A stretch of 64,000 nucleotides of DNA from an uncultured Fidelibacterota bacterium (GCA_913043235.1 CAJWLO010000005.1:9597-73596); one strand, 5' to 3'. Counted from the first letter of the stretch, positions 24,212-61,668 are shown. Translations and numbers: made by a program. Notes: a model not told the origin generated them from the sequence alone.

Positions 24212-24229
24212 GCACAAAAAAGGCGATTG

Positions 24230-28886: not shown

Positions 28887-30647
28887 ATGAGCCAAATGAT
28901 AAAAAGACCAGTAAATCTTAGTAAAATAATTCATTCATTTATTATAATTATTTCATTCTCAGGTATTGAGTTACAAGGACAAGAATTATACGATTTAATT
29001 ATTCGCAATGGAAGATTAATTGATGGTACAGGAAATCCGTGGTTTCAGTCAGATATTGGGGTATCGAATGGCAAAATTGTTGCTATAAAGAATCTTAAAA
29101 ATCAAAAAGCAAATCGGGATATTGATGCAACAGGACTTTATGTTACACCAGGATTTATAGATCTTCATTCTCATGCTGATAGGGCGATGACTTCAGATTT
29201 TATTGAACCTCGTATGGCAAAGAGCTTAACTAGTCAAGGACTTACAACTGTATTAGGAGGGGCAGATGGGAGAAATACAATTTGGCCATTGAGCAAAGAA
29301 ATGGAAGCTTTAAATAGTAAAGGCCATGGCATGAATTTTATTTTAATGGTAGGCCATAGTACTATCCGCCGTGAGGTTATGGGAGATGATTACGAACGAT
29401 TGGCCACTCAGGATGAGATTAAACGAATGAAAGTCCTGCTTAAAGAAGGATTAGAAATGGGTGCTTTTGGAATGGGTGCGGGGCTTGAATATCGACCTGC
29501 ACGTTTTAGTAATACGGAAGAAATTATTGCTCTAGGAAAGGTTATTTCAGACTATAATGGTTTTTATATCGCACATCAGCGGAATGAAGCCATAATGCCG
29601 CTTTCCCAGTTGCCAAGTACAGCCAAAGGTTGGCCTATTGATGGTTTACAGGCTTTGGAAGAAACAATACAAATAGCTCGCGCTACTGGAATTCGGGTAG
29701 TGGGTAGTCATCATAAAGCAAGAGGGAGATCTTCTTTTGGAAGGTCTTCTCATGATATTCAAATAATAAATAATGCTCGAGATGAAGGCCTACAGGTATT
29801 TATTGATGTATATCCATATGAAACATTTGGAGGTGGAGCGAGACCAATGATACCGAAATGGTCTTTGATAGATAAAAATGTTTCTATAGTTGGTGGAAGA
29901 GATGACCCAAAATGGAGTGAAGAAGGTCTGTTCAAAAATTCTAGGAATAATTTAAAACGTAATTGGGCTGATTCTAAAAAACGTGAAATAATTAAAAGAG
30001 ATATTTCTTGGATCGTTGATCATAATGGCGGGCAAGATAGGGTTGTAGTTGTAGACTATCCGGATAAAGATTTTGTAGGAAAAACATTACAGCAAATTGC
30101 TAATGATCGAAATACTACTTATCAAGAAGTAGTTGTTTACATGGCATTAAATGGATATAAGGAAGTAATTGGTGGCGCATGGACACGAGGTTATGGTATA
30201 AATGATATGGATGTAACTAATTACTATAAACAAGATTATACCATTACAAGTTCTGATGCGGCAGTTAGCGGCGTTAAAGATAGAGAGGGGTTCCAATCAG
30301 AACCGGGTGCACACCCGCGTCATTTTGGGGCATTTACACGTCGCATAGCTCGGTATGTTAAAGATTTGAATACAACCACTTTACCATTTGCAATTCGTTC
30401 AATGACTGGTCTTCCTGCAAGTGTTGTTGGGCTAAAAGATCGAGGATATTTAAAGGAGGGTTTTGCTGCTGATATAACAATAATTGATTTCAATAATATT
30501 AGGGATAATGCAACTGTTTTAAACCCAGACCTATATTCGAAAGGTATCGAATATGTAATTATAAATGGAAACTTTACGGTTGATCGAGGTGAGCTTACAG
30601 GTAATTTGCCAGGTAAAATAATTAGGAATGATCATGAAGATTTTTAA
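28887..30647 (+). CDS. D-aminoacylase-like (N-acyl-D-amino-acid deacylase family, Amidohydro_3) amidohydrolase
   Basis: YDLIIRNGRLIDGTGNPWFQSDIGVSNGKIVAI, PGFIDLHSHAD (HxH), and a C-terminal GYLKEGFAADITIIDF pattern. The usual NCG Cys-ligand region reads GGADG here, so it is divergent. Confidence 0.7.
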   Translation: MSQMIKRPVNLSKIIHSFIIIISFSGIELQGQELYDLIIRNGRLIDGTGNPWFQSDIGVSNGKIVAIKNLKNQKANRDIDATGLYVTPGFIDLHSHADRAMTSDFIEPRMAKSLTSQGLTTVLGGADGRNTIWPLSKEMEALNSKGHGMNFILMVGHSTIRREVMGDDYERLATQDEIKRMKVLLKEGLEMGAFGMGAGLEYRPARFSNTEEIIALGKVISDYNGFYIAHQRNEAIMPLSQLPSTAKGWPIDGLQALEETIQIARATGIRVVGSHHKARGRSSFGRSSHDIQIINNARDEGLQVFIDVYPYETFGGGARPMIPKWSLIDKNVSIVGGRDDPKWSEEGLFKNSRNNLKRNWADSKKREIIKRDISWIVDHNGGQDRVVVVDYPDKDFVGKTLQQIANDRNTTYQEVVVYMALNGYKEVIGGAWTRGYGINDMDVTNYYKQDYTITSSDAAVSGVKDREGFQSEPGAHPRHFGAFTRRIARYVKDLNTTTLPFAIRSMTGLPASVVGLKDRGYLKEGFAADITIIDFNNIRDNATVLNPDLYSKGIEYVIINGNFTVDRGELTGNLPGKIIRNDHEDF

Positions 30648-32181
30648 TTGGATAAACAAATCAAACACAATAATACTTAGTATATTCATTGGTCTTCAAC
30701 TAAATAGTTTTATTTTTGCGCAAAATTATTCTAGGCCATCTGAATTCAATGGTTTGGCCTCTTACATACAAAAGGAAATTGTAGATCGCAACCTGCCTTC
30801 TTTAGCTATAGCGGTGGCAAAAGATGGTAAAATTATTTGGGAAGAAGCCTGGGGCATGGCTGATCGTGAAAACCAAATTCCAGCTACTCCTCATACGATG
30901 TATTCATTGGCTTCAATTTCCAAACCAATTACGGCCACGGGAATAATGGTTCTTGTTGAAAAAGGATTAATTGATATAGATGATCCTGCAAATAATTACC
31001 TTGGTTCAGCTCAACTCAATGGACATTCCTTTAATGCCAAAGGTGCTACGGTTAGGCGTTTGTTGGATCACAGTTCTGGGCTTCCACTTCATTACCAGTT
31101 TTTTTATGAAGATGAGCCTTATACAAGACCACCCATGGATATAACTATCATGAGATATGGTAATCTTGTTACAAAGCCTGGGGAGAGATGGCAGTATTCT
31201 AACTTAGGATTTGGAATATTAGATTATATCATTGAGAGAACTTCTGGTCGCTCATATATTGATTTTATGCGAAATGAAGTGTTTTTACCCTTAGGACTTA
31301 ATCATACAACGGTAGATATTGGCCCAGGTCTTGAAAAGTATGCTGCTGTTAGATATAACCCTGAAAATGAACCTATTCCTTTCTATGATTTTGATCATCC
31401 GGGTGCTTCTGCAGTGTTCTCAAGTGCACATGATCTTGTTCGCTTTGGGATGTTTCATTTGAAAAATAACCTTCCAGAACAGCGTCAGATTATTACCACT
31501 AAATCTATAGACATTATGGCGAACGAAAGTTATGCGCGACCTCAAGGAAATATTTCAAGAAAAGAATTTGGCTATGGTTTAGGATGGACAGTAAGAAAAA
31601 ACAATAAAGGATTGAAAATTGTAGGTCATGGTGGAGGAATGGGTGGTGTACGTACCCAGTTGGTTTTATTGCCTGATCAAGATGTTGCTATTGTGATTCT
31701 ATGTAATAAGTATACGTCATTAGTTACGGAATTAGAAAATAAGATTTTGGAGCATTTATTTCCGAAGCAGTTTGAAGCCCCTAGTCAAATCACTTCAAAT
31801 ACAGAAGATGAAAAAGCTAAGGATATAGGTCCTAATAGCATTAAAGAAAAGAAACTTAACGGTATATGGTCTGGGGCAGTACAAACCTATAATGGGGGAA
31901 AAAGGGTCAATTTAAAAATTGATAAATCAGGCTATGCTTTTATTCGAATTGATGACCAACCCTGGTCAGTATTAAATAAACTAAGTTTTGAAAATAATTT
32001 CCTTAATGGTGAGTTTCAAGGTGATCTTGGCACAGATGATGTAAATCGTGTCAAATATAAGCTCAGGCTTGATGTTAAGTATCGCCAAAATAAATTGAAC
32101 GGCGCATTAATTGCGGTACCTGTCCCAGAAAAGCGTGTCCGCAATGCACTAACTCATTGGGTTGAATTAAAAAAGGATTAA
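30628..32181 (+). CDS. S12 serine hydrolase (R61 DD-peptidase / D-aminopeptidase type)
   Basis: ASISKP (SxxK), WQYSNLGF (YxN), VGHGGGMGG (HxG). Signal peptide present. Overlaps the upstream gene by 20 nt; ATG 30634 is an alternative start. Confidence 0.85.
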   Translation: MIMKIFNWINKSNTIILSIFIGLQLNSFIFAQNYSRPSEFNGLASYIQKEIVDRNLPSLAIAVAKDGKIIWEEAWGMADRENQIPATPHTMYSLASISKPITATGIMVLVEKGLIDIDDPANNYLGSAQLNGHSFNAKGATVRRLLDHSSGLPLHYQFFYEDEPYTRPPMDITIMRYGNLVTKPGERWQYSNLGFGILDYIIERTSGRSYIDFMRNEVFLPLGLNHTTVDIGPGLEKYAAVRYNPENEPIPFYDFDHPGASAVFSSAHDLVRFGMFHLKNNLPEQRQIITTKSIDIMANESYARPQGNISRKEFGYGLGWTVRKNNKGLKIVGHGGGMGGVRTQLVLLPDQDVAIVILCNKYTSLVTELENKILEHLFPKQFEAPSQITSNTEDEKAKDIGPNSIKEKKLNGIWSGAVQTYNGGKRVNLKIDKSGYAFIRIDDQPWSVLNKLSFENNFLNGEFQGDLGTDDVNRVKYKLRLDVKYRQNKLNGALIAVPVPEKRVRNALTHWVELKKD

Positions 32182-32184
32182 TTA

Positions 32185-33582
32185 ATGATTATTAAAAGAA
32201 CATTCTTTTATTTAACTCTAGTTTTAATTGGCTGTGAGGGTAATCAGGAAAAAAATGCAGTAGATAATCTTTTTTCAGAATGGAATAAAAACAATTCACC
32301 CGGTGGTTCTTTTGCTATAATTAAAAATGGAAATATTTTATATAAAGGAGGTTTTGGTTATGGAAACTTGGATTACGATTATCCCAATGCTTCCAACTCC
32401 GTTTTTTATTTAGCATCTGTATCCAAACAATTTACTGCGATGGCAATGGCACTTTTAGAGGAGCAAGGTAAAATATCATTGGATGATGATATCCGAAAAT
32501 ACTTTCCTGAGATTCCTGATTATGGTTTCAAAATTACAATACGAAATTTAATCCACCATACAAGTGGACTGCGAGATTACTTAAACCTATGGACTTTAAA
32601 AGGACGATCTTATGCAGATTCTATGGATGAACAAGAAATAATTAATCTCATTGCAAGGCAAAAAGCGCTCAATTTCAATCCCGGTGATGAATACATGTAT
32701 TCTAACTCTGGTTATTTTTTGATGGCAGTGCTCGTAAAAAGAGTGACTGGTATGTCTATTCGTGATTACACAAAAAAATATTTTTTCCAACCTTTAGAGA
32801 TGAACGATACTCATTTCCATGATAACCGTGATATGATCGTAAAAAATCGTGCAGAAAGTTATTATGTAAAAAATGATTCAGTGCTTGAAAGGGTACATAG
32901 TAGTTTTGACTTGGTTGGTTCAGGTGGACTGCTATCTAATATAGATGATTTGATTCTGTGGGATAAAAACTATTATAACAATAAAATTGGATCTGGGGAA
33001 AAATTGATGGAGACAATTCTCACCAAAGGAATATTGAATAATGGGGATACTCTTGATTATGCCTTTGGTCTTGTACACGGGGAGTATAAGGGACTAAAAA
33101 CAATTGGTCACAGTGGTGGTTTTTTAGGATTTAGGACACATATGCTTCGGTTCCCAGATCAGCGATTTTCGGTTATAATTCTTACTAATTTGTTTTCAAT
33201 GAAACCAGGTAATTTGGCTAAAAAAATCAGCGATATTTACTTGGCTGATATATTAGCTGATCCAGATTTTGAGACAAATGAAGAGGAGGTTTCTACCAGT
33301 GAATTAGATGAAACTGATTTTAGAATGGATAATAAGCAACTTTCCAAATTTAGTGGTACGTTCTTTTCACCAGAACTGGAAACATCGTATCATTTTAATA
33401 TGAAAAAGGACACATTGACATGCCAAATTCGTTATTTGGATCCCGTAAGTTTAAATCCAGCAGGTCCTTTTACATTTAAAAAAGATAAATGGATAACGCT
33501 GGAGTTTGAAAAGAATTACAACGGATTTATGCTAAATACTGGTCGGACAAAAAATATAAAATTCAAAAGAAAAAATAATTAA
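32185..33582 (+). CDS. S12 serine hydrolase lipoprotein, paralog of the N-terminal half of 24230-27073
   Basis: Lipobox LVLIGC. ASVSKQF, YMYSNSGY, IGHSGGFLGF. C-terminal FSGTFFSPELETSYHF (DUF3471-like). Confidence 0.85.
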   Translation: MIIKRTFFYLTLVLIGCEGNQEKNAVDNLFSEWNKNNSPGGSFAIIKNGNILYKGGFGYGNLDYDYPNASNSVFYLASVSKQFTAMAMALLEEQGKISLDDDIRKYFPEIPDYGFKITIRNLIHHTSGLRDYLNLWTLKGRSYADSMDEQEIINLIARQKALNFNPGDEYMYSNSGYFLMAVLVKRVTGMSIRDYTKKYFFQPLEMNDTHFHDNRDMIVKNRAESYYVKNDSVLERVHSSFDLVGSGGLLSNIDDLILWDKNYYNNKIGSGEKLMETILTKGILNNGDTLDYAFGLVHGEYKGLKTIGHSGGFLGFRTHMLRFPDQRFSVIILTNLFSMKPGNLAKKISDIYLADILADPDFETNEEEVSTSELDETDFRMDNKQLSKFSGTFFSPELETSYHFNMKKDTLTCQIRYLDPVSLNPAGPFTFKKDKWITLEFEKNYNGFMLNTGRTKNIKFKRKNN

Positions 33583-33635
33583 ATACCTAGAATAATTGGT
33601 AAAATTACTCAGCTGAAATTAGAAGGAGTATAGAT

Positions 33636-36600
33636 ATGAGAATAAACAAACAAGCAATCAACTTTTTAATAGTTGTATTATTATTTCCCACATATTTGCT
33701 AGCTCAAGATAATGTGGAAGAATGGGATGTAACCTTAGCCAGAGGCAAAACGCGAGATATATCTTTCCAGACCAATGAAGGGACTTGGATGTCTGTAGAT
33801 ATTTCACCAAATGGAAAATGGATAGTTTTTGATCTATTGGCTCATATCTATAGAGTTCCTTCAAAAGGTGGTAAAGCAAGCGTGCTTACACAGGAAACCG
33901 GTGTAGCTATCAATTATCATCCACGTTATTCTCCAGATGGTAAATCAATTGCATTTATCTCTGATCGAGCTGGTCAAAATAACCTTTGGATAATGGATGC
34001 TGATGGATCAAACCCCAGATCTATATTTGAAGATTTAAATTTACGTGCAAGCCATCCAACCTGGACACCGGATAGCGAATATATTATTGTATCAAGGCAG
34101 TCAGTAGTTAGAGGCCCGTCCCGAGGTAGAGATTCGGGCATTTATATGTACCATCGTAATGGAGGTAAAGGAATAAAGATAGGCGGTAAAGAACTTCAAG
34201 GTGCAAAATGGCCATCCGTTTCTGAAGATGGAAAATATCTATATTTTCATTTAAGAACGCCTGGACAAACAGTTGCCTGGAATGTTAGTGATATACTTCA
34301 AGGTGCCATCAATATACAAAGATATGAATTTGACACAGGAGAGATCACCCCAGTTACAAGTGGTGCTCCTACAAGACAATTAAGACTTTCCTCTGGAGGG
34401 GCATATGCTCCTGAGATTTCACCTGATGGTCGATGGCTGGCATTTGCAAGACGTATTCCTGATGGTACTATTACTTGGAAAGGTCATGAATTTGGCCCTC
34501 GAACCGCATTATGGCTCCGCGATTTATTAACTGGGGATGAACGAGTAATTATGGACCCTATTGAACAGGATATGACCGAAGGAATGAAAACCATAAGAGT
34601 TTTACCAGCATATAGTTGGGATGCAAAAGGTAATTCTATCATTTTATCCCAAGGTGGTAAGTTAAGGCGTTTGAATGTTAAATCTGGGAAAATTAAAACA
34701 ATCCCCTTTACTGCCAGTGTAAAAAGAACAATTTCTGAGCAGGCTTATAAGCAATTTGATATCTCTGATGAGCCATTTAAGGTGCAATTCACCCGATACC
34801 ATGTTGGTGCCCCGAATGGCAGTGCTGTTGCATTCCAAGCTGTGGGTAAAATATATCTTATGTCTCTTCCAAATGGAACACCAAAAAGATTAACTAATGA
34901 TAATTTTCGTGAATTTGAATATACACCTGCTTTTTCACCAGATGGTAAATGGATAGCATTTGTTAGTGTTGATGAAACTGGAGGCGGTCATTTATGGAAA
35001 GTACGTTCTACAGGTGGTTCTCCTACACGTTTATCAAATATATATGGAGAATATATACATCCTACTTGGAGTTCTGATGGTAAACAGATAGCGCTTGTTA
35101 GAGGTTCTGGCGCTACCGCGAGAACAAGGACTATGATCGATAATCCATACTATGATATCCTTACCATTTCTTCTTCAGGAGGTAAGTTTAAAGAAATCGC
35201 AAGAGTTCCAGTACCAGTTTCATTTGCAAGATCCCAATTTGTTCGACCATCATTTGGGAAAAATAACAGAATATTTTTTCCTCAAATGGGTGTAGGAAGA
35301 TCTGATTCAACTAGATTGATTTCAGTAAATAATAAAGGAAAGGATAAGCGAACACATTTTACTTTCCCACATGCAGACGAAGTCATGATATCTCCGGAAT
35401 CAAAATGGGTTACGTTCAATGAAGGTGATAATATTTATCTTGTGCCAATGCCATTTGAGGGTCTTTTTTCAAGCCCAATAGCTATAGATAAAAAAGATGG
35501 CAAGGGTGCCTTACCAGTAAAAAAATTGAGTGAAGAAGGAGGTATACATCCAAGTTGGCTCAATGAAACTACCGTACAATTTGGAAGCGGCTCACAATAT
35601 TTTACCTATAATATTGAATCTTCAAATAAAGAAACTCATGATATTAATCTTGTTATACCAAGAAATATCCCGCAAGGTACGATTGTTCTTTCGGGTGCCC
35701 GAATCCTTACCATGGATAACCGAAAGGTTATTGATGAGGGTGATATAGTAATAAAAAAAGGAAGGATTGCCTGTTTAGGTAAATGTGATAAATCTAATGC
35801 GGATAAAATTGTTGATTTGCGAGGTAAAACAATTATCCCAGGATTAATTGATATGCATTCACATTTTTATAGGGAATATCGTGGAATTATCCCAATGAAA
35901 ACATTTGAGGCATCAGTGCCATTGGCATACGGCGTTACTTCAAATCTGGATAATTCAATGTGGTCCCAAGATGTCTTTCCGGCTGCGGAAATGATTGAAT
36001 CTGGTGCACTTATTGGTTCTCGCACTTATAGCACCGGGGATCCTTTATACGCAGGAGATGGCCCCAGACAAAATGAATTAACGAGTTATAAAATAACTGA
36101 AGATAATATTAGACGTCTTTCTTCGTGGGGAGCTGTATCACTAAAACAGTATATGCAGCCTCAAAGAAAGCAACGGCAGTGGGTATCAGACATTGCACGA
36201 AAGTATGGGCTAATGGTTACTTCTGAGGGTTCAGACTTACATTATAATTTATCTATGATCATGGATGGGCAAACTGCGTGGGAGCACCCGATTAGTTATA
36301 TGCCAATGTATTCGGATGCTGCAAAATTTTTTGGTAAAGCAAAAACTGTGTATTCTCCTACCTTTATGGTTGGTGGATCAGGCCCGTGGAATGATGAATA
36401 CTTTTTTGCACAATCAGAAGTTTGGAAAGATGAAAAATTAAGATTGTGGATGCCTTGGCAGCAGCTAATTCCGCATAGTCGTAGACGTGAACTGAGAGTT
36501 GATACAGACTATAGTTATCCTTTTTTAGCACAGGTATTGGCAGATATCATGGAAGAAGGTGGACATGGAGCAATTGGATCTCATGGTCAGCAGCATGGGA

Positions 36601-36932
36601 TTGCATCGCATTGGGAGGTCTGGGTGGCTGCCTCAGCAATGGGACCCATGGGTGCATTAGAATTAGGAACAAACGAAGGAGCTTATTTCTTAGGTGCACA
36701 AAATGATATTGGTTCATTGGCAAATGGAAAACTTGCCGATTTAATTGTGTTGAATTCAAATCCATTGGATGATATAAAAAATACACTAGACATAAAGTAT
36801 GTGATGAAAGGTGGGATTTTATATGATGGATTTAATTTAGATGAAATCTGGCCTGAAAAGAAAAAATATGGAGATCGTCCTTGGATTAATGAGGATGCAT
36901 TGCGTCAAGATTCAAGGTCCATAAATAATTGA
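33636..36932 (+). CDS. TolB-like (PD40) beta-propeller protein fused to a canonical amidohydrolase domain
   Basis: Several PD40-type repeats: YSPDGKSIAFISDRAGQNNLWIM, ISPDGRWLAFAR, FSPDGKWIAFVS, WSSDGKQIALV. C-terminal domain with IIPGLIDMHSHFY (HxH) and GKLADLIVLNSNPL. 1098 aa. Confidence 0.85.
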   Translation: MRINKQAINFLIVVLLFPTYLLAQDNVEEWDVTLARGKTRDISFQTNEGTWMSVDISPNGKWIVFDLLAHIYRVPSKGGKASVLTQETGVAINYHPRYSPDGKSIAFISDRAGQNNLWIMDADGSNPRSIFEDLNLRASHPTWTPDSEYIIVSRQSVVRGPSRGRDSGIYMYHRNGGKGIKIGGKELQGAKWPSVSEDGKYLYFHLRTPGQTVAWNVSDILQGAINIQRYEFDTGEITPVTSGAPTRQLRLSSGGAYAPEISPDGRWLAFARRIPDGTITWKGHEFGPRTALWLRDLLTGDERVIMDPIEQDMTEGMKTIRVLPAYSWDAKGNSIILSQGGKLRRLNVKSGKIKTIPFTASVKRTISEQAYKQFDISDEPFKVQFTRYHVGAPNGSAVAFQAVGKIYLMSLPNGTPKRLTNDNFREFEYTPAFSPDGKWIAFVSVDETGGGHLWKVRSTGGSPTRLSNIYGEYIHPTWSSDGKQIALVRGSGATARTRTMIDNPYYDILTISSSGGKFKEIARVPVPVSFARSQFVRPSFGKNNRIFFPQMGVGRSDSTRLISVNNKGKDKRTHFTFPHADEVMISPESKWVTFNEGDNIYLVPMPFEGLFSSPIAIDKKDGKGALPVKKLSEEGGIHPSWLNETTVQFGSGSQYFTYNIESSNKETHDINLVIPRNIPQGTIVLSGARILTMDNRKVIDEGDIVIKKGRIACLGKCDKSNADKIVDLRGKTIIPGLIDMHSHFYREYRGIIPMKTFEASVPLAYGVTSNLDNSMWSQDVFPAAEMIESGALIGSRTYSTGDPLYAGDGPRQNELTSYKITEDNIRRLSSWGAVSLKQYMQPQRKQRQWVSDIARKYGLMVTSEGSDLHYNLSMIMDGQTAWEHPISYMPMYSDAAKFFGKAKTVYSPTFMVGGSGPWNDEYFFAQSEVWKDEKLRLWMPWQQLIPHSRRRELRVDTDYSYPFLAQVLADIMEEGGHGAIGSHGQQHGIASHWEVWVAASAMGPMGALELGTNEGAYFLGAQNDIGSLANGKLADLIVLNSNPLDDIKNTLDIKYVMKGGILYDGFNLDEIWPEKKKYGDRPWINEDALRQDSRSINN

Positions 36933-36953
36933 AAGCATTGAAAGGGATTAATT

Positions 36954-38390
36954 ATGAATAGAGGAATAACTAAACTAACCTTTATTTTTCTGATTCTAAT
37001 TGGTTTTTTATATGGTAAATCAAATGATCGCTTGGCTATTGTTGGTGCGACGATAATTGATGGAACAGGAAAAACTCCAATCCCCAATGGAACCATCCTG
37101 ATAGAAAATGGGATAATTAAAGCAGTTGGTAAAAAGAAGGATATAAGAATCCCTGCTAACTTTAACGAGATTAAGGCAAGAGGTAAATTCTTAATACCAG
37201 GTTTGATGGATGCGAACCTTCATTTGTTTTTAAATATTGATTTAGAAACATTGATAAAACATGAAGATCGCTATCATGAGATAGTAATTGAAGCGGCCCA
37301 AATTGCATTAAAGACCGGTCAGACAACAGTATTTGATACTTGGGGTCCGAGGGCCGCACTGGTGCAAGCTAGAGATATGATTAATGACGGTCAGGTACCA
37401 GGGAGCAGAATTTACCTTGCTGGAAACATAATTGGATTTGATGGTCCATTGTCAGCAGATTTTCGTGCCCAAGCAGCACCATATGTGAGCAAGGCTTTTG
37501 TAAAACGCATTGAAGACGCATGGGTAGAAAATACAGGTCGTTCATTACTTTGGATGACTCCTAATGAAGTACGATCGATTATCAAAGACTATACAACTAA
37601 GAGCATGGATTTTCTCAAGTATGGAGCTAGCGGACATAAAGATATGAATTTTATTTCATTTTCTGAACGTGTCCAGCGGGTTATTGTTGAAGAAGGCCAT
37701 AGAGCTGGAATGACCGTACAAACTCACACGACCTCGGTTGAGAGTTTAGATATGGCGATTGAAGCTGGGGTTGATATTGTTACACATGGCGGTATATCAG
37801 GGCCTACAACTCCTATACCTGATGAAACTATTCAAAAGTTAGTTGATAGAAATGTAGCTATCTCTGCTTTAGCTATAACGCAAAAGCGTTTGGATGCGTT
37901 AATTGAGCATGCACCTAGTAGTACTCTAACACCCTACATGAAAATTCAAAAGACTAATCATGAGAATATGATTAAGGCAGGTGTTATTTTGTTAGTTTCA
38001 ACCGATGCCGGTATTCAAAATCCAGTATTGACTGCGGAATCAGATAATCCATCTGTCTTAATTGATCCACGAACGAAACTTGGTGAGGGACATTTTAATG
38101 CGCTACTTGCTTTTGAGGAGCGAGGTATGAAGCCAATGGAAATTTTAAAATCTGCTACCAGTCATATTGCTCAAGCCTATGAATTAGAAGATGAAATTGG
38201 GACTTTAGAATCTGGCAAAATTGCTGATATGGTTCTTCTTAACGCAAACCCACTTAAAAGTGCAAAAAATTATCGCAAAATAGACATGGTGATTAAAGAA
38301 GGTAAAGTTGTTGATCTTGACGCGCTTCCAATTGCGCCAATTATCAGTTCTATGGAGGTGTCACCAACTGAAACGGATGAAAAGAGGTGA
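36954..38390 (+). CDS. amidohydrolase-family protein with degenerate first metal motif (NxH in place of HxH)
   Basis: AIVGATIIDGTGKTPIPNGTILIENGIIKAVGK, then IPGLMDANLHLF where HxH is expected. C-terminal GKIADMVLLNANPL. Signal peptide present. Confidence 0.8.
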   Translation: MNRGITKLTFIFLILIGFLYGKSNDRLAIVGATIIDGTGKTPIPNGTILIENGIIKAVGKKKDIRIPANFNEIKARGKFLIPGLMDANLHLFLNIDLETLIKHEDRYHEIVIEAAQIALKTGQTTVFDTWGPRAALVQARDMINDGQVPGSRIYLAGNIIGFDGPLSADFRAQAAPYVSKAFVKRIEDAWVENTGRSLLWMTPNEVRSIIKDYTTKSMDFLKYGASGHKDMNFISFSERVQRVIVEEGHRAGMTVQTHTTSVESLDMAIEAGVDIVTHGGISGPTTPIPDETIQKLVDRNVAISALAITQKRLDALIEHAPSSTLTPYMKIQKTNHENMIKAGVILLVSTDAGIQNPVLTAESDNPSVLIDPRTKLGEGHFNALLAFEERGMKPMEILKSATSHIAQAYELEDEIGTLESGKIADMVLLNANPLKSAKNYRKIDMVIKEGKVVDLDALPIAPIISSMEVSPTETDEKR

Positions 38391-38392
38391 GC

Positions 38393-40255
38393 ATGTTTAA
38401 TAATAGACTATTAAAAATGAGATCATCTGAAAATTTTATGCCGCTTGTTAATAAAACCTGGGTTTGGTTAGTACTCATTATTCAGATGTTTAATTTCGGT
38501 TTTGCAACAGGCACCGATGCCTCAAAATCAAAAGAAGTTGAAATAAAATGGGGAATCAAAATTCCATTACGTGATGGTGTTAAAGTGAATGCGACCATAT
38601 ATCAGGAGCGTGGGTTAAAAGATAAGTTGCCTGTCATACTTTGTTTGACACCATATAATGCAGACACATATCAGGATTTTGCCTGGTATTATGCACAAAA
38701 TGGTTACATTTTTGCTGTAGTAGATGTTCGAGGTAGAGGAAATTCAGAAGGTGAGTTTAATCCAATGCTTCAAGAAGCAAATGATGGACATGATATCGTT
38801 GAATGGCTTGGGAAACAAGATTGGTCTGATGGTCAAGTGGCTATGTGGGGCGGTTCCTATGGTGGATATGATCAATGGGCTACTGCAAAAGAATTTCCGT
38901 CACACCTTAAGACTATAGTTCCAGTTGCTTCTTGTTTTATGGGCGTTGATGTACCAATACGTGGTAATATCACTTCACCTTATTGGATTCAGTGGATGAC
39001 GCTTACTAGTGACAAGATTGCAAATTTTAATTTATTTGGCGAGAGTAAATATTGGTCATCTATATACTTTCAAATGTATAAAAACCACCTTCCGTACGCT
39101 GATCTACCGAAATTAGCGAATAATTCAACTACAAAATTTAATGTATGGATGGACAATCCAGAGCAGGGTGAATTTTGGGATAGCTATAATCCGACAGATA
39201 AAGATTTTAAGAAATTCAAATTACCTATTTTAACCATAACTGGACACTATGATGGTGATCAACCAGGTGCTTTGGAATACTTTCATCAGCATATGAAACT
39301 CGGTTCATCAAAAGGACGTAAAAATCATTATCTTATAATTGGACCATGGGATCATGCTGGTACACGTAAACCAAAAAGAGAAGTTGGCGGTCTTGATTTT
39401 GGTGAAGAAAGTCTACTTGATATAAAAAATGTTCATAAAGAGTGGTATGATTGGACAATGAAAGACGGAGAGAAACCCGAATTCCTTAAAAAACAAATCG
39501 CATACTATGTTTTAGGCTCAAATCAATGGAAGTATATTGATTCTCTTAAAGAATTAGATAATAATAGAAAAAAATTATATTTGAATTCTGATGGTAATGC
39601 CACCAGCGTTTTTAATTCGGGTAGTTTAAAATCTGATTTAAACTATGAAAATAGTAAGGATTCAGATACTTATATTTATGATCCTTTAAATACAAAGCCC
39701 GGTGAAATCGAACTTGAAACTGTGGTGGGTAGTGGATATAGAAGTGGCAATGGTTACATTGTTGACCAATCATTTGCAATGTCAATAGATGGTAATGGTT
39801 TAGTTTATCATAGTAAGCCATTTGAGTCGGATACAGAAATTTCCGGCTATGTAAAATTTGTTGCGTGGCTTGAAATGAATGTTGCCGATACTGATTTTAT
39901 CATTAGCCTATATGAAATTCTACCTAATGGAAATAGTATTCTTTTAACTGATGATCAGTTAAGGGCACGTTATAGGAAATCACTAAGGAAAGCTGAGATG
40001 GTAAAACCTGGGAAAATATTAAAATATGAATTTGATGGATTTATGTTTTTCTCGAAACAAATTCAAAAAGATAGCAGACTGCGTTTGGTCTTCAAATCCA
40101 TTAATTCAATAAATTCACAAAAAAACTATAATAGTGGCGGTATAGTTTCACAAGAGTCTGGTAAAGATGCTAAGACTGCAAATGTAACTCTTTACCATAG
40201 TGAGAAATATTCAACTTATCTTGAACTGCCTATTGTGAAAAAAATAAGGAATTAG
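38393..40255 (+). CDS. S15 CocE/NonD family hydrolase
   Basis: VDVRGRGNSEG and the nucleophile VAMWGGSYGGYDQW. ATG 38393 follows AGAGGTGA. The track's GTG 38387 overlaps the upstream stop. Confidence 0.85.
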   Translation: MFNNRLLKMRSSENFMPLVNKTWVWLVLIIQMFNFGFATGTDASKSKEVEIKWGIKIPLRDGVKVNATIYQERGLKDKLPVILCLTPYNADTYQDFAWYYAQNGYIFAVVDVRGRGNSEGEFNPMLQEANDGHDIVEWLGKQDWSDGQVAMWGGSYGGYDQWATAKEFPSHLKTIVPVASCFMGVDVPIRGNITSPYWIQWMTLTSDKIANFNLFGESKYWSSIYFQMYKNHLPYADLPKLANNSTTKFNVWMDNPEQGEFWDSYNPTDKDFKKFKLPILTITGHYDGDQPGALEYFHQHMKLGSSKGRKNHYLIIGPWDHAGTRKPKREVGGLDFGEESLLDIKNVHKEWYDWTMKDGEKPEFLKKQIAYYVLGSNQWKYIDSLKELDNNRKKLYLNSDGNATSVFNSGSLKSDLNYENSKDSDTYIYDPLNTKPGEIELETVVGSGYRSGNGYIVDQSFAMSIDGNGLVYHSKPFESDTEISGYVKFVAWLEMNVADTDFIISLYEILPNGNSILLTDDQLRARYRKSLRKAEMVKPGKILKYEFDGFMFFSKQIQKDSRLRLVFKSINSINSQKNYNSGGIVSQESGKDAKTANVTLYHSEKYSTYLELPIVKKIRN

Positions 40256-48317: not shown

Positions 48318-48333
48318 TCCAAGGAGGATAATA

Positions 48334-55931: not shown

Positions 55932-57491
55932 ATGAAAATGATGACTAGAAATATTATACTAATATTAATCTTATTTACCGTTGTTAAAGGTGTGTCTCAA
56001 GAATCAGTACCAGAAGGATTGGAAAAACGTATTGAAAATATTTATAAAGAATGGAATATACCTGGTATGGCAGTAGCAATTATCAAAGATGATAAAGTTA
56101 TCTATGCGAAAGGATTTGGTGTTCGCGAAATAGGTAAGTCTGCAAGAGTAGATGAAAGGACTCTTTTTGCAGTTGCTTCAACGACAAAAGCAATGACTGC
56201 TGCTACTTTGGGTATGCTTGTAGATGAAGAAAAACTAAGTTGGAATGATCGGGTTATAGATGTTTTACCTGGTTTCCGTATGTATGATGCATATGCAACT
56301 GCTGAGATGAGAGTTCGGGATTTATTAACCCATAAAAGTGGTTTGTCTAGAGGTGATGGAGCGTGGCTTGAGTTTCCTATTTCTAGAGAAAAAGTTTTAC
56401 ATCAAGTTCGTTATTTAAAACCTTCATACAGTTTTAGATCAAAATACCATTATAGTAATTTAATGTATTTGGTGGCAGGATTGGCATCAGAGGAAATACA
56501 TGGCGATACTTGGGATAACGTAATGTATAAACGATTATTTAAACCATTAAATATGAGTAGGAGTCTGTCAACGACAAGCGAGATTAATAAACGCAGTAAT
56601 GTAGCAACGCCTCATGCCAAAGAAAATGGATTTTTTTCAGAAGGAAATTTTAAGCCAATAACTCATCGTAAAGCTGACGGCATTGCTCCTGCTGGAGCAG
56701 TTTATTCAAATGTATTAGAAATGGCCAATTGGGTTAGACTAAATATGAATAATGGTGAGTTTGAAGGAAAAAGAATATTAAGTGAATCAGTGATGAATCA
56801 AATGCATACGCCCCAGATGCATTATAAATTTAACCCAAGATTCCCTGAGGAAGAAGAAGTCACGAATTTTAAAACCTATGGTCTTGGTTGGTTAATAGAT
56901 GACTATAGAGGACATAAGCGGGTTAGTCATGGAGGTTATTTAGACGGATTTAGTACTTGGATTGGTTTTATTCCATCAATAAACGTAGGATGGGTTGTAA
57001 TGAATAATGGTGGTATTCGTATGACCCAGGTGGTTGGAACTGAGATTATCGATGCTTTTTTAAATGTAAATAATAAAATTGATTGGTCTATGTTGGAGAT
57101 GAAATATCAGAAGGATAATCCATCATATGGATATCAAGTTTCCGATAGCTTATTGGCTGATATAGTATCTAACCGTGTTAACGGAACCAGCCTTCGCCTG
57201 GATAATTCTGGTTATACAGGTGAATACTCAAATGAATTTTATGGTAAACTAAGAGTTTATGAAAAAAATGGAAAACTTTTTATATCAAGAGGAAATAAAT
57301 TGCAGGGTATTTTAAATCAATGGCATTATGATACTTTCCGTGTAAGATGGGATTTATTAGCAGATAGAGTCAGGGGATGCTGCGGAGGAGGAAATGAATT
57401 CATTACCTTTCATTTTAATATGAAAAATGAAGCTGCTGTGTTGGAAAGAATCATTGATGGAAATCCAACATATTTTCATAAATTAGATTAG
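55932..57491 (+). CDS. S12 serine hydrolase, tandem copy 1
   Basis: ASTTKAM (SxxK), YHYSNLMY (YxN), VSHGGYLDGF (HxG). C-terminal YTGEYSNEFYGKLRVYEKNGKLFI (DUF3471-like). Confidence 0.85.
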   Translation: MKMMTRNIILILILFTVVKGVSQESVPEGLEKRIENIYKEWNIPGMAVAIIKDDKVIYAKGFGVREIGKSARVDERTLFAVASTTKAMTAATLGMLVDEEKLSWNDRVIDVLPGFRMYDAYATAEMRVRDLLTHKSGLSRGDGAWLEFPISREKVLHQVRYLKPSYSFRSKYHYSNLMYLVAGLASEEIHGDTWDNVMYKRLFKPLNMSRSLSTTSEINKRSNVATPHAKENGFFSEGNFKPITHRKADGIAPAGAVYSNVLEMANWVRLNMNNGEFEGKRILSESVMNQMHTPQMHYKFNPRFPEEEEVTNFKTYGLGWLIDDYRGHKRVSHGGYLDGFSTWIGFIPSINVGWVVMNNGGIRMTQVVGTEIIDAFLNVNNKIDWSMLEMKYQKDNPSYGYQVSDSLLADIVSNRVNGTSLRLDNSGYTGEYSNEFYGKLRVYEKNGKLFISRGNKLQGILNQWHYDTFRVRWDLLADRVRGCCGGGNEFITFHFNMKNEAAVLERIIDGNPTYFHKLD

Positions 57492-57501
57492 GAGGAGTAA
57501 A

Positions 57502-59031
57502 ATGAAAAAATACAATAAACTAACAAAATCAATGATCTCTACAGCATTATTTTTATTTATGCTTACATATGTTCAAGGAATGCAGCAGGAGTCTATACCT
57601 CAAGGATTAGAACAGCAAATTGAACAGATTCGTAAAGATTGGGATATTCCTGGAATGGCGGTAGCGATTATCAAAGGTGATAAAGTTATTTATGCAAATG
57701 GATTTGGTGTTCGTGAATTAGGTAAGTCAGCTAAAGTAGATGAAAAGACATTATTTGCGGTTGGATCTACTACCAAAGCAATGACAGTTGCCACATTGGG
57801 TATGCTTGTTGATGAGGGTAGACTAAGTTGGGATGATCGAGTTATAGATGTATTGCCCGGTTTCCGTATGTATGATGCATATGCGACGGCTGAGATGAGA
57901 GTCCGTGATTTATTAACACATAAAAGTGGATTAACCCGAGGCGATCAAGTTTGGTTTGGATCTCCGATGGATCTACAAGAAGTTTTTCATCAAATACGCT
58001 ATCTAAAACCAGCATATAGTTTTAGATCTAATTATCACTATCAGAATCTAATGTATTTGACGGCAGGATTGGTCTCAGGTGAAATACATGGTGATAGTTG
58101 GGATAATGTAATGTATAAAAAATTCTTTAGACCTCTGAAAATGAGAACAAGCGTCACAAACCTTAAAGATTTGGCCAAAAGAAGTAATGTTGCCACTCCT
58201 CATGGAATTGTCGATTACAGCGGAAAACTTGAGCCCATTGAAGATCGCAATTTGGATAATATTGCTCCAGCAGGTTCGGTGTATTCAAATGCATTAGAAA
58301 TGGCTAATTGGATAAGATTAAATATGAATAAAGGTGAGTTTGAAGGTAAAAGAATATTAAGTGAAAAAGTGATGAATGAGATGCATACACCTCAAATGCA
58401 TATGTCTTATTCCACGCCAAATCAAGTAACAAATTTTAGTTTATACGGCTTAGGGTTTAGAGTCTCAGATTATAGAGGGCATAAAATGGTGAGTCATGGA
58501 GGTGGTATTGATGGTTTTATAACTTGGATTGGTTTTATCTCTGATATTGATCTAGGCTGGGTAGTTGTTAATAATGGAGGCAGTCGCGCATCCACATTAG
58601 TAGGTTATGAAATTATTGATGCCTTTATGGGTCTAGCTGATGATATCGATTGGTCAGGAGATGCAAAGAAATCTTATGATAAAAGTATGGCACGCCTTGA
58701 TAGTCTAAGAAATGATGTTGATTCTCGAAGAGTTTTTAGCACAGAAACAAGATTGCAAAACTCAGGATATGCAGGTGACTATAATCATGAATTTTATGGT
58801 GAAATGACAATATCAGTCAGTGGCGATAAGCTAATTATTTCTCGAGGAGATGCTTTAAATGGCACATTAAACCATTGGCATTATGATACTTTTCGGGTAC
58901 GATGGGATGAGCCAAGGGAGCGAGCAAGATATGGCAATGAATTTATTTCATTTCACTTTAATGCCAAGAATGAGGTGGTTTATCTAGAAAGATCCTTAGA
59001 TGGTGCACCAAGGTATTTTAAGAAAAAATAA
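57502..59031 (+). CDS. S12 serine hydrolase, tandem copy 2
   Basis: GGAGGAG at 57491-57497. GSTTKAM, YHYQNLMY, VSHGGGIDGF. Long blocks are shared with copy 1 (VIDVLPGFRMYDAYATAEMRVRDLLTHKSGL). Confidence 0.85.
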   Translation: MKKYNKLTKSMISTALFLFMLTYVQGMQQESIPQGLEQQIEQIRKDWDIPGMAVAIIKGDKVIYANGFGVRELGKSAKVDEKTLFAVGSTTKAMTVATLGMLVDEGRLSWDDRVIDVLPGFRMYDAYATAEMRVRDLLTHKSGLTRGDQVWFGSPMDLQEVFHQIRYLKPAYSFRSNYHYQNLMYLTAGLVSGEIHGDSWDNVMYKKFFRPLKMRTSVTNLKDLAKRSNVATPHGIVDYSGKLEPIEDRNLDNIAPAGSVYSNALEMANWIRLNMNKGEFEGKRILSEKVMNEMHTPQMHMSYSTPNQVTNFSLYGLGFRVSDYRGHKMVSHGGGIDGFITWIGFISDIDLGWVVVNNGGSRASTLVGYEIIDAFMGLADDIDWSGDAKKSYDKSMARLDSLRNDVDSRRVFSTETRLQNSGYAGDYNHEFYGEMTISVSGDKLIISRGDALNGTLNHWHYDTFRVRWDEPRERARYGNEFISFHFNAKNEVVYLERSLDGAPRYFKKK

Positions 59032-59066
59032 GAGTTTTTATTTCAACTAGATTATTTTTTGCAAAA

Positions 59067-60260
59067 ATGATGATAAAATACATTCCAATTATAATTACGT
59101 TGTTTTCATCCATGCTATACTGCCAGACAATTGCAGTAAAAGCGGGAATAATCTATACGGCCAATAAAGGAAAAGTATATAAAAATGGTATCCTTTTATT
59201 AAAGGACGGGAAGATTAAAGCAGTTGGAAAAAATATTAGGATACCATCGAAAGCTAAAATACTAGACTATTCAAATTATGAAATTGTGCCGGGTTTCATA
59301 GATAACCATTCCCATATTGGGACTGATCCAGAAAACCTAAATGAATTTCCAGTGGTATTTGGTCCACAACACAAAATTATTGATATTTTATCTCCTGACT
59401 CTTCTTATTGGGAAAAAGTTTATAAAGGTGGAGTTACAACTGTTGTTACCGGACCAGGAAGCGGAGAAGTCTCCTCAGGTCAAGCAGTCGTAATTAAAAC
59501 ATGGGGTGGTACAATTGAAGAAAGGGTCCTCAAGGAAAAAGGTGGTGTTAAAATTGCTATGGGCAGAAAGAGAAATTCACCAAAGACCAGCATGGGGACA
59601 ACTGCATTATTGAGAGAAAAATTCATAAAAGCAAAAGAATACGATAAAAAAATAAAAGAATGGAAAAAGAATAAGAAAGATACTCCACGTCCTGAAAAAG
59701 ATTTGGCCCTAGAGGCTTTTGCAGACGTTTTATCAGGTAAAGATAGAATTAGATCGCATGTACACTCGGCGCATGATATTTTATCTATTTTAAGGTTAAA
59801 AGATGAGTTTGGCTTCGATCTGACACTACACCATTCAACAGAAGCATATAAAGTGCCCAAAGAAATTGCTAAACGTAACGTTAAAGTTGTTGGGATGCCC
59901 TTATTCGCAAGAATTGGTATCAGTGATAGTGTGATGTATACAGGTAAAATAATGAATGATCATGGTATTCTTTTCGCTTTTCATACAGATGACCCTGTAG
60001 TAGCATCAAAATGGCAGCGAGGTAATGCAGGAATGGGAATACGATATGGTATGACTGAACAGTCCGCCTTGGAAGCTGTTACAATTAATCCGGCTATGAT
60101 TGCAAAAGTGAGTGACCGTGTCGGCTCATTGGAAGAAGGAAAAGATGCGGATTTTATAGTAATTAATGGTACATGGTATGAGCCCAAGTCCATCATTGAA
60201 AAGGTTTATATCGATGGGAAGAAAGCTTTTGATCGTTCTATTGAGCAACGGGATAAATGA
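59067..60260 (+). CDS. amidohydrolase (cog1228-type, canonical HxH)
   Basis: [44 protein letters not shown]-terminal [12 protein letters not shown]. Signal peptide present. Confidence 0.85.
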
Positions 60261-61531
60261 TTAATATGATAAGATACAATTTTACTAGGAAATATTTAAT
60301 CTATCTGTGTGCATCATTCTTGTTAATTATTAATCATGCGCTTTATGCCCAAGCCATAGCTCTAAAGGGCGGGAAAATTATAACAATTTCGGATGGAGAT
60401 ATAATTAATGGGACGATATTGATCGATAAAGGAAGGATAAAAGCCGTCGGGAAAAACATCAAAATTCCTAAAGAAGCTGAGATTATTGATATAGGTGGCA
60501 AAATAGTGATGCCTGGTCTTATTGATGCCATGACTTATTATGGTATTGACCCTAACGACTTAAATGAAACATTAAAACCTATTTCTCCAGAATTAAGAAT
60601 TATTGAAGCATATTACCCATTTGGGGATTTTGGTGATGGATCCGGGGAAATACGCGCGAATGACCTTCTGAGCGGCGGAATAACAACAATCTATATAGCT
60701 CCAGGCGACGCCACAATTTTAGGTGGTCAGGGAGCTGTTGTTCAAACTGCTGCACCTTCATTCGAAGCAATGATTCTTAAGATTCCATCAGCTATTGATA
60801 TGACCTTGGGTTCAAAGCCTGGCAAATTAAATAGAAAAGATAACAGGACACCTGTCACAAAAATGGCTGCCATATCTCAGCTCCGAGAAACTTTTATAAA
60901 AGCTCAGGAATATTTAAGCAAAAATGATAATCCCAGAAATTTAAGTATGGAATCTATCGGTCTAATGTTGAATAGAAAAATTCCGGCTAGAATTCAAGCA
61001 AATAGCCCTGGCGATATCAGAGCTTCAATGAATCTAGCAACCGAATTTAAGTTTGACTTAATTATTGATGGTGGAGCATCATCTGACAGTTATATCGATG
61101 AAATTGTAAAACGTAAGATTCCTGTTATCCTTGGGCCAGTATCCCATCCATATATTTCTGGTGATGAGATTCCTGAGCATTCGGAATATCCATCAATCGA
61201 TGAAGGGTTAGCTGGTAGGTTAGATAAGGCAGGTGTGAAGGTAGCTTTTGGGAGCTTTTCTTATGGTTTAGGTTCTCTTGCAAAAGGAATTACGGGGAAA
61301 TGGTTATTAATCGATGCCGCTATATCTACAGGGTACGGAATGTCTGAAAAATCAGTACTACGAAGTTTAACGTTAAGTGCCGCAGAAATTTTAAATATTG
61401 ATGACCAAGTTGGCAGTATTGAAATAGGTAAAAAAGCAGATTTAGTTGTTTTAAATGGAGACCCCTTAAGTATAAAAACATGGGTAGATCGGGTTTATAT
61501 TTCCGGCAGCTTAGTCTATAAAAAACAATGA
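60257..61531 (+). CDS. amidohydrolase-fold protein lacking the HxH metal motif
   Basis: ATGA overlap with 59067-60260. [32 protein letters not shown], then [12 protein letters not shown] where HxH is expected. C-terminal [14 protein letters not shown]. Confidence 0.8.
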
Positions 61532-61572: not shown

Positions 61573-61668
61573 TTGTTGCATAAGTAGAATTGTTTATTAA
61601 ATTCGCAGCTCAAAAAGCCATGCAGGAGTGGCTAAAAAAGCTTAAAATCACATATGGAGGGTGAAAAA

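Follow-up and report, generated by a model that had tools for sequence, protein, structure and literature searches.

An exported catalytic amidohydrolase and its ligand-less paralog in a hydrolase array of an uncultured Fidelibacterota bacterium

The window analysed here is a stretch of 64,000 nucleotides (nt) of DNA from an uncultured Fidelibacterota bacterium (GCA_913043235.1, CAJWLO010000005.1:9597-73596), and all positions are counted from its first letter. Within a single co-directional run of ~28 genes, extending from 15.4 kb to the window end, the family order S12, S12, amidohydrolase (AH), AH is found twice, from 30628 (copy 1) and at 55932-61531 (copy 2). The initial annotation had read this repetition as a four-gene functional module, with a catalytic AH paired to a non-catalytic paralog downstream of two S12 enzymes. 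We found that the repeated order is a by-product of tandem duplication and reshuffling of families in a peptidase island and that copy 1 comprises four unrelated enzymes. The last two genes of copy 2, which we call AHcat (AH_59067) and AHdeg (AH_60257), are a genuine two-gene unit conserved across phyla. The eight open reading frames (ORFs) lie where the initial annotation had placed them (Table 1), and its family calls hold: Pfam assigned PF00144 (S12 / beta-lactamase fold) to the ORFs at 30628, 32185, 55932 and 57502, and PF01979/PF07969 (amidohydrolase) to those at 33636, 36954, 59067 and 60257. The PD40 propeller repeats in 33636 and the quoted motifs, namely, HSH in 33636 and 59067, A-N-L-H in 36954 and A-M-T-Y-Y in 60257, were also correct.

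Table 1 Cassette genes and their immediate neighbours in the window
Feature	Coordinates	Strand	Supporting matches and remarks
Exported S12 serine hydrolase, copy 1 first	30628..32181	+	PF00144 E 2e-67; SxxK at residue 96; signal-like N-terminus
Exported S12, D-aminopeptidase-like, copy 1 second	32185..33582	+	PF00144 E 7e-57
Exported PD40/TolB-like beta-propeller with C-terminal amidohydrolase	33636..36932	+	PD40, Amidohydro_1/3; HSH at GLIDMHSHFY
MolA/PuhB-type mononuclear amidohydrolase, Asn-x-His	36954..38390	+	4UB9 E 2e-89; predicted active
S15 Xaa-Pro dipeptidyl-peptidase-like hydrolase	38387..40255	+	PF02129, PF08530; start overlaps 36954 stop by 4 nt
Exported S12 with C-terminal DUF3471, copy 2 first	55932..57491	+	PF00144, PF11954
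S12 with DUF3471, tandem paralog of 55932	57502..59031	+	Lineage-specific duplication; L007 has only one such gene
AHcat, exported 3OOQ-like amidohydrolase	59067..60260	+	3OOQ E 6e-66; ligand signature HHKHHHD
AHdeg, exported ligand-less AHcat paralog	60257..61531	+	3OOQ E 4e-52; signature MYDQNGF
TonB-dependent receptor	61654..63999	+	Plug, TonB_dep_Rec_b-barrel and CarboxypepD_reg matches; 3' of the AHcat-AHdeg pair; truncated by window end

The AHcat-AHdeg pair

Seven positions of the metal site were scored, namely, both His of HxH, Lys on beta-4, two candidate His on beta-5, His on beta-6 and Asp on beta-8. Aligned with the Thermotoga maritima structure 3OOQ, AHcat has the full ligand set (H81, H83, K162, H231/H233, H256 and D308). 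AHdeg is without any canonical metal ligand, H, H, K, H, H and D being replaced by M, Y, D, Q/N, G and F, and has A-M-T-Y-Y where AHcat has HSH. The two proteins are full-length paralogs (32% identity, E 1e-57, BLASTP) of an uncharacterised 3OOQ-like subfamily, and an identity of only 32% places their duplication far back. The fold of AHdeg is kept, as seen in its Pfam matches, in its AlphaFold2 (AF2) model (pLDDT 78.8, pTM 0.81) and in the match of this model to 3OOQ in Foldseek (E 1e-37, TM 0.80/0.88).

AHdeg is under strong purifying selection despite the loss of its ligands. Its orthologs in Gemmatimonadota and Acidobacteriota share ~52% identity with the window protein, and mean identity per column is 71% over 16 aligned sequences, with ~135 columns invariant. 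Invariant residues include D90-A-M-x-Y94, Q247-A-N249, S296-H-P298 and S333-F-S335, and two loops, S-H-P-Y-x-S-G-x-E-I-P and S-F-S, are invariant among orthologs, as are the replaced ligand positions themselves. Across 44 loci, AHcat orthologs have a median identity of 60% to the window protein and AHdeg orthologs one of 52%, so AHdeg evolves only slightly faster than its catalytic partner.

AHcat lies directly 5' of AHdeg in 41 of the 44 loci carrying both genes (Gemmatimonadota, Acidobacteriota and Marinimicrobia), where it ends within ~120 nt of the AHdeg start or overlaps it, although ORF starts in the high-GC loci, and with them the gene gaps, are approximate. In the window, the AHcat stop and the AHdeg start overlap within ATGA. 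In the Gemmatimonadota/Longimicrobiales loci (L001, L011-L046), the pair is part of a block comprising a divergent S12, a PD40-S9 gene, an M19 dipeptidase, AHcat and AHdeg, which ends in a D-aminoacylase-like amidohydrolase encoded on the other strand and, in L001, is followed by a gene for a DAO-family oxidase. The block hints at catabolism of D-amino-acid-containing peptides.

Natural fusions also join the two kinds of barrel. We searched 1.84 billion representatives with a profile, cut the best 150 into domains and scored the ligand positions, calling a domain C when it carries the full ligand signature and d when it does not. C and d domains are fused in 85 of these 150 proteins, in the architectures d-C-d (41), C-d (29) and d-C (15). 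The remainder are d-d (25, for example, P0141, P0156 and P0173), d-d-d (4), single d (20), single C (13) and proteins with no scorable full-length domain (3). C domains are nearly all HHKH[YH]HD, and d domains are highly variable at those positions. Named fusions come from Planctomycetota (Telmatocola sphagniphila, Gemmataceae and Isosphaeraceae) and one Pseudomonadota metagenome-assembled genome (MAG). In a domain tree, the fusion P0126 has its C domain in one cluster with the window AHcat and the catalytic partners of split pairs and its d domain in another with the window AHdeg and the dead partners of split pairs, and the C and d branching orders mirror one another. The C/d label changes three times on this tree, and at least two of the changes are forced by well-supported branches; ligand loss has thus recurred within the subfamily, apparently at least two to three times.

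For copy 2, these observations lend good support to the earlier proposal that a catalytic AH is paired with a non-catalytic paralog: the ligands are gone yet the protein is under selection, and adjacency, fusions and mirrored phylogenies connect the partners. From this genomic evidence, we lean, if only slightly, towards a physical hetero-oligomer of AHcat and AHdeg. The AF2 model of P0126 (838 residues, pLDDT 90.1, pTM 0.90) implies a confident relative placement of its two barrels. The low-confidence segments of this model are d-domain loops only, and two of them fall in the regions of conserved AHdeg-type motifs (SAPYPTGGEVPDP and SYSQDFGS).

Several points weigh against a complex. In three loci of one Marinimicrobia lineage (L003-L005), AHcat and AHdeg are 6.4 kb apart. 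The confidence of the P0126 model would bear on contact between the separate AHcat and AHdeg chains only indirectly. A partner is not universally required, as 13 of the 150 representatives, and 3OOQ, are stand-alone catalytic proteins. The 25 d-d fusions without a catalytic domain and the 20 stand-alone d proteins fit a purely auxiliary role less well. Finally, since the positions of the old site are invariant in AHdeg, its pocket could still do something. The inserted genes in L003-L005 are four, encoding a 432-residue amidohydrolase, an aldehyde dehydrogenase, an MFS transporter and a 646-residue S12, and AHdeg lies there between an S12 gene on its 5' side and a further amidohydrolase gene on its 3' side.

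Some of these points would suit a different reading, in which AHdeg has put its barrel pocket to new use and works independently of AHcat, as a metal-independent enzyme or a periplasmic binding or chaperone protein for the substrate class of AHcat, and the two genes are co-located through a common pathway. AHdeg does offer invariant candidate residues (S296-H297, E304, S333/S335, D90, D181 and D271), its barrel-mouth positions, including the old ligand sites, are invariant in orthologs, and its type of loop is poorly resolved even in the fused model, as expected of substrate lids; the stand-alone d and d-d proteins and the separated genes of L003-L005 point the same way. However, the close packing of the two genes in most loci, with overlap of start and stop, the fusion of d to C in more than half of the best representatives and the mirrored phylogenies of the partners are not what independence would lead one to expect. 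Moreover, the old-site residues are highly variable across the wider d family, which argues against a shared new catalytic site. We consider an independent AHdeg unlikely.

The repeated four-gene order

The same family order does occur twice, and not by random accumulation alone. When the 28 family labels were shuffled freely, S12, S12, AH, AH arose twice with P = 7e-5, and any four-family word was repeated with P = 0.0075. When tandem same-family runs were kept as blocks, P for the observed order was 0.006. The repeated order is non-random, yet the tandem runs carry most of the signal. As an observation in its own right, two adjacent S9 peptidase genes at 46254-50397 share 78% identity over 684 residues and represent another tandem duplication; same-family runs are thus common in the array.

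Judged from pairwise alignments and the tree, the two cassettes are not duplicates of one unit and have no orthologous member in common. In an all-versus-all BLASTP comparison, S12 identity between the copies was 21-24%, not above the level to other S12 genes of the array, and within the copies it was 27% (copy 1) and 62% (copy 2). The copy-2 S12 pair is a tandem duplication. The four S12 proteins all match PF00144 with 193-228 bits (cutoff 27 bits) and carry SxxK between residues 78 and 96, but in a maximum-likelihood tree they fall in three clades. S12_30628 (23-27% identity to the other window S12 genes) is in a clade distinct from all of them and groups with an Acidobacteriota S12 (L015) located directly 5' of an AHcat-AHdeg pair (support 100/100). 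S12_32185, for which the best NCBIfam match is a D-aminopeptidase under the curated cutoff, is a paralog of the N-domain of the S12-PAFAH fusion at 24227 (35% over 440 residues, clade support 98/97). S12_55932, S12_57502 and the lone S12 of L007 cluster together, and the sister of their clade (100/100) is the S12 that heads the Gemmatimonadota block. The amidohydrolases of both cassettes are likewise of four different subtypes, and only 75 residues can be aligned between AH_33636 and AH_36954 (BLASTP). The initial annotation had also singled out an N-terminal likeness between the two AHs that it called degenerate; the shared stretch is a general beta-sandwich motif that is also present in the catalytic AH_59067.

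Nor is the order conserved. Outside close relatives, S12, S12, AH, AH was found at none of the 42 genome loci anchored on AHdeg. Anchoring on AH_36954 gave 10 loci in all, a metagenome scan with this protein returning near relatives only; the four-gene order around it was retained solely in relatives more than 90% identical (L048-L050) and was not present in the distant loci L054-L057, a small sample of four single look-ups. Already in L051 and L052 (Marinimicrobia, 85% identity), one S12-PAFAH gene replaces both upstream S12 genes of copy 1, and L007, the nearest named relative, has a single S12 with a TonB-dependent receptor gene between it and the copy-2 pair.

A module in which two S12 enzymes feed a catalytic AH and its scaffolding paralog is therefore most improbable, and we hold with high confidence that the four genes do not constitute a unit. 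In favour of the module, a free shuffle seldom produces the order twice, S12 genes frequently occur close to AHcat-AHdeg, the Gemmatimonadota block-head S12 is orthologous to the copy-2 S12 genes, and the S12_30628 ortholog adjoins the pair in L015. Against it stand the lack of any orthologous member between the cassettes, the absence of the order from the 42 and 10 loci beyond near relatives, and a copy-1 "degenerate" AH that is an active-type MolA homolog unrelated to its neighbour. Neither an S12 pair nor an S12 directly adjoining AHcat-AHdeg is conserved across loci, and in the two fusion loci that were inspected the gene encoding the fused C and d domains was solitary, with no S12 nearby.

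The chance that AHdeg is a functionless, decaying duplicate, adjacent to AHcat through a recent tandem duplication, is negligible: every canonical ligand is gone, as such decay would have it, but the frame is intact with a signal-like N-terminus, the fold is predicted confidently, the duplication is ancient and the protein is conserved at ~52% identity among Marinimicrobia, Gemmatimonadota and Acidobacteriota.

The amidohydrolases of copy 1

The term "degenerate" fits only one of the two AHs to which it had been applied. AHdeg has indeed lost every ligand. AH_36954 has Asn-x-His in place of HxH with the other ligands kept, which is the arrangement of an active enzyme type. It matches molinate hydrolase (MolA, 4UB9/4WGX, E 2e-89) and phenylurea hydrolase B (PuhB, 4WHB, E 9e-71) over its full length. 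Its A-N-L-H aligns with G-N-V-H of MolA, placing the Asn motif at N88/H90, and K222, H228, H258, H278 and D351 correspond to K240, H246, H282, H302 and D373 of MolA, all identical. MolA has an asparagine in place of one M-alpha histidine and is mononuclear and active; its single catalytic metal occupies the M-beta site with H282 and H302 as ligands, waters are held by K240, H246 and D373, and alanine mutants of K240, H282 and H302 have no activity (PMC4407906). D-[AG]-N-x-H is present in all 120 of 120 AH_36954 homologs (64-92% identity, from Chloroflexi, Gemmatimonadota and Xanthomonadales among others), so the motif is a conserved family signature and not decay. Based on this correspondence, AH_36954 is very likely an active MolA-type enzyme, predicted to bind one metal and to act as a hydrolase. 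Since it is of an active type and no paralog of its neighbour AH_33636, the proposed pairing of a catalytic with a non-catalytic paralog does not apply to copy 1.

The MolA/PuhB type gains a new member in AH_36954. As in MolA and PuhA/PuhB, Asn-x-His stands in for HxH, and the Lys, the three His and the Asp with which MolA holds its metal and waters are all retained. The substrates of MolA and PuhB, which originate from actinobacteria that degrade herbicides, are synthetic thiocarbamates and phenylureas, whereas AH_36954 is exported, lies in a marine peptidase island and has orthologs of 64-77% identity across several phyla; its substrate is presumably a natural one. This degree of conservation, seen among Marinimicrobia, Chloroflexi, Gemmatimonadota and Xanthomonadales, is unusual. 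The neighbours of four distant homologs varied, being a second copy, an S12, S15 and M19 set, an S9-PPIase fusion or nothing related. The sole adjacency of AH_36954 that recurs at a distance is the one with S15, whose gene overlaps the AH gene by 4 nt both in the window (38387-38390) and in the Longimicrobiales locus L055 (9461-9464), and the MolA-like AH and S15 may be a conserved two-gene unit. Around 10 AH_36954 homologs (700-765 residues) have an added 5'-nucleotidase C-terminal domain (PF02872), and L055 has a separate PF02872 gene near the AH_36954 ortholog.

The neighbouring AH_33636, which the initial annotation had treated as the canonical enzyme of copy 1, may have an atypical metal site. 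It has only distant relatives in the PDB, the best being 2QS8 (E 2e-17), and its adjacency to AH_36954 is kept in the Marinimicrobia relatives L048-L052 only. In a low-confidence alignment of its C-terminal 430 residues with 2QS8, the beta-5 His is replaced by Glu (MVTSEGS) and the beta-8 Asp by His (IGSHGQQHG); both replacements are kept in the 84%-identical relative L051. An apparent PD40-amidohydrolase in L015 was rejected, as it matches the propeller part only and is Tricorn-like; it gives no evidence for copy-1 genes beside the pair.

Setting, known systems and proposed function

From 15.4 to 64 kb, the array encodes, in order, M24, S9, a Cys/Met PLP enzyme, an Ere-like esterase, an esterase, M19, the S12-PAFAH fusion (24227), S15, a D-aminoacylase-like amidohydrolase, copy 1, S15, S12, DUF5916, S15, S9, S9, a class-A beta-lactamase fold, S9, MFS, an epimerase, copy 2 and the TonB-dependent receptor. 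The products are mostly exported hydrolases (M24, S9, M19, S12, S15, a class-A beta-lactamase fold and five amidohydrolases), nearly every one begins with a signal-like hydrophobic segment, and the array most likely degrades peptides. None of the nine proteins tested scored above the cutoff of any NCBIfam family. The nearest named relatives are Candidatus Marinimicrobia MAGs, and the window DNA was found in marine metagenomes only; in the two metatranscriptome runs from the same sample, no words of the locus were present. Promoter and terminator scans over 24-64 kb gave counts at the shuffle level, with no intergenic terminator between cassette genes, and are thus uninformative on operon limits. 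The TonB-dependent receptor gene also adjoins the AHcat-AHdeg pair in L002, L003, L007 and L037.

The best solved relative of both AHcat and AHdeg is 3OOQ, a structural-genomics entry for which our literature search found no published function. All of its ligand positions are kept in AHcat. It was deposited as one protein species, whereas here a catalytic and a ligand-less protein form a pair and elsewhere C-d and d-C-d fusions occur; AHdeg differs from it by the lack of any ligand and by the extra invariant loop SHPYxSGxEIP. In sequence and fold, all four AHs match next best to the COG1228 Xaa-Pro dipeptidases and the L-Arg/L-Lys carboxypeptidase Cc2672 (2QS8, 3FEQ/3N2C, 3MTW and 3BE7), which share the superfamily and two-domain fold and, acting on short peptides, are the best functional analogy. 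However, E-values are only 1e-8 to 1e-21, and NCBIfam scores are far under the equivalog cutoffs. We know of no report that a COG1228 peptidase needs a ligand-less paralog.

Inactive proteins of the amidohydrolase fold include the DHOase-like PyrC', which accompanies ATCase, and the CRMP/DRP proteins. Enzyme-pseudoenzyme pairs ("prozymes", such as those of Trypanosoma AdoMetDC and PRMT1) are a known concept (PMC5201418, PMC10211241). In these systems, as with AHdeg, a dead paralog is retained under selection beside an active relative or in complex with it. AHcat and AHdeg differ from prozymes in family and setting and in being exported, and the evidence for a complex between them is genomic, through adjacency, fusions and co-phylogeny. 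A search of the literature on amidohydrolase pseudoenzymes and heterodimers and on Marinimicrobia peptidase loci, which left most subscription journals outside its reach, returned nothing on the AHcat-AHdeg pair and no description of an enzyme-pseudoenzyme pair in the 3OOQ subfamily.

We propose that AHcat and AHdeg would be exported separately, each with its own signal-like N-terminus. Once in the periplasm, they would associate as an asymmetric hetero-oligomer in which each pair has a single active barrel. The ligand-less barrel would give structure and/or substrate-binding loops, with SHPYxSGxEIP and SFS at the barrel mouth. The S9, S12, S15 and M19 enzymes of the neighbourhood would release a small peptide or N-acyl-amino-acid, which the complex would hydrolyse. 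We infer this type of substrate from the analogy with COG1228 Xaa-Pro dipeptidases and Xaa-Arg/Lys carboxypeptidases, and the substrate would probably be imported via the adjacent TonB-dependent receptor. The presence nearby of a D-aminopeptidase-like S12, M19, a D-aminoacylase-like AH and one DAO-family oxidase faintly suggests peptides containing D-amino acids. Taken as a whole, the account that combines recurrence within an island, a MolA-type enzyme in copy 1 and an AHcat-AHdeg unit with a putative hetero-oligomer appears reasonably probable to us.

A broader generalization can be advanced only tentatively, and we regard it as somewhat doubtful. The 3OOQ-like amidohydrolases might be a widespread and so far undescribed class of obligately asymmetric enzymes, in which a catalytic barrel always works with one or two ligand-less barrels, either as translationally coupled neighbours (Marinimicrobia, Gemmatimonadota and Acidobacteriota) or, in Planctomycetota and others, within C-d and d-C-d single chains. 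Dead barrels would then have evolved independently at least two to three times, and an exported activity against peptides would depend on their conserved mouth loops for recognising the substrate or for activation.

From a biological perspective, the four-gene cassette is an ordinary case of family expansion in a large peptidase island. The findings also call for caution in annotation: a missing HxH alone does not mean that an amidohydrolase is inactive, as the MolA type illustrates, and some proteins called "amidohydrolase" are pseudoenzymes. AHcat and AHdeg belong to an uncharacterised subfamily in which a metal-free paralog lies beside the catalytic protein or is fused with it, in at least four phyla and with repeated independent ligand loss. 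The pair would add a bacterial, exported metallo-hydrolase case to the short list of enzyme-pseudoenzyme systems, and it offers a hypothesis for thousands of "amidohydrolase family proteins" of 800-1500 residues without known function.

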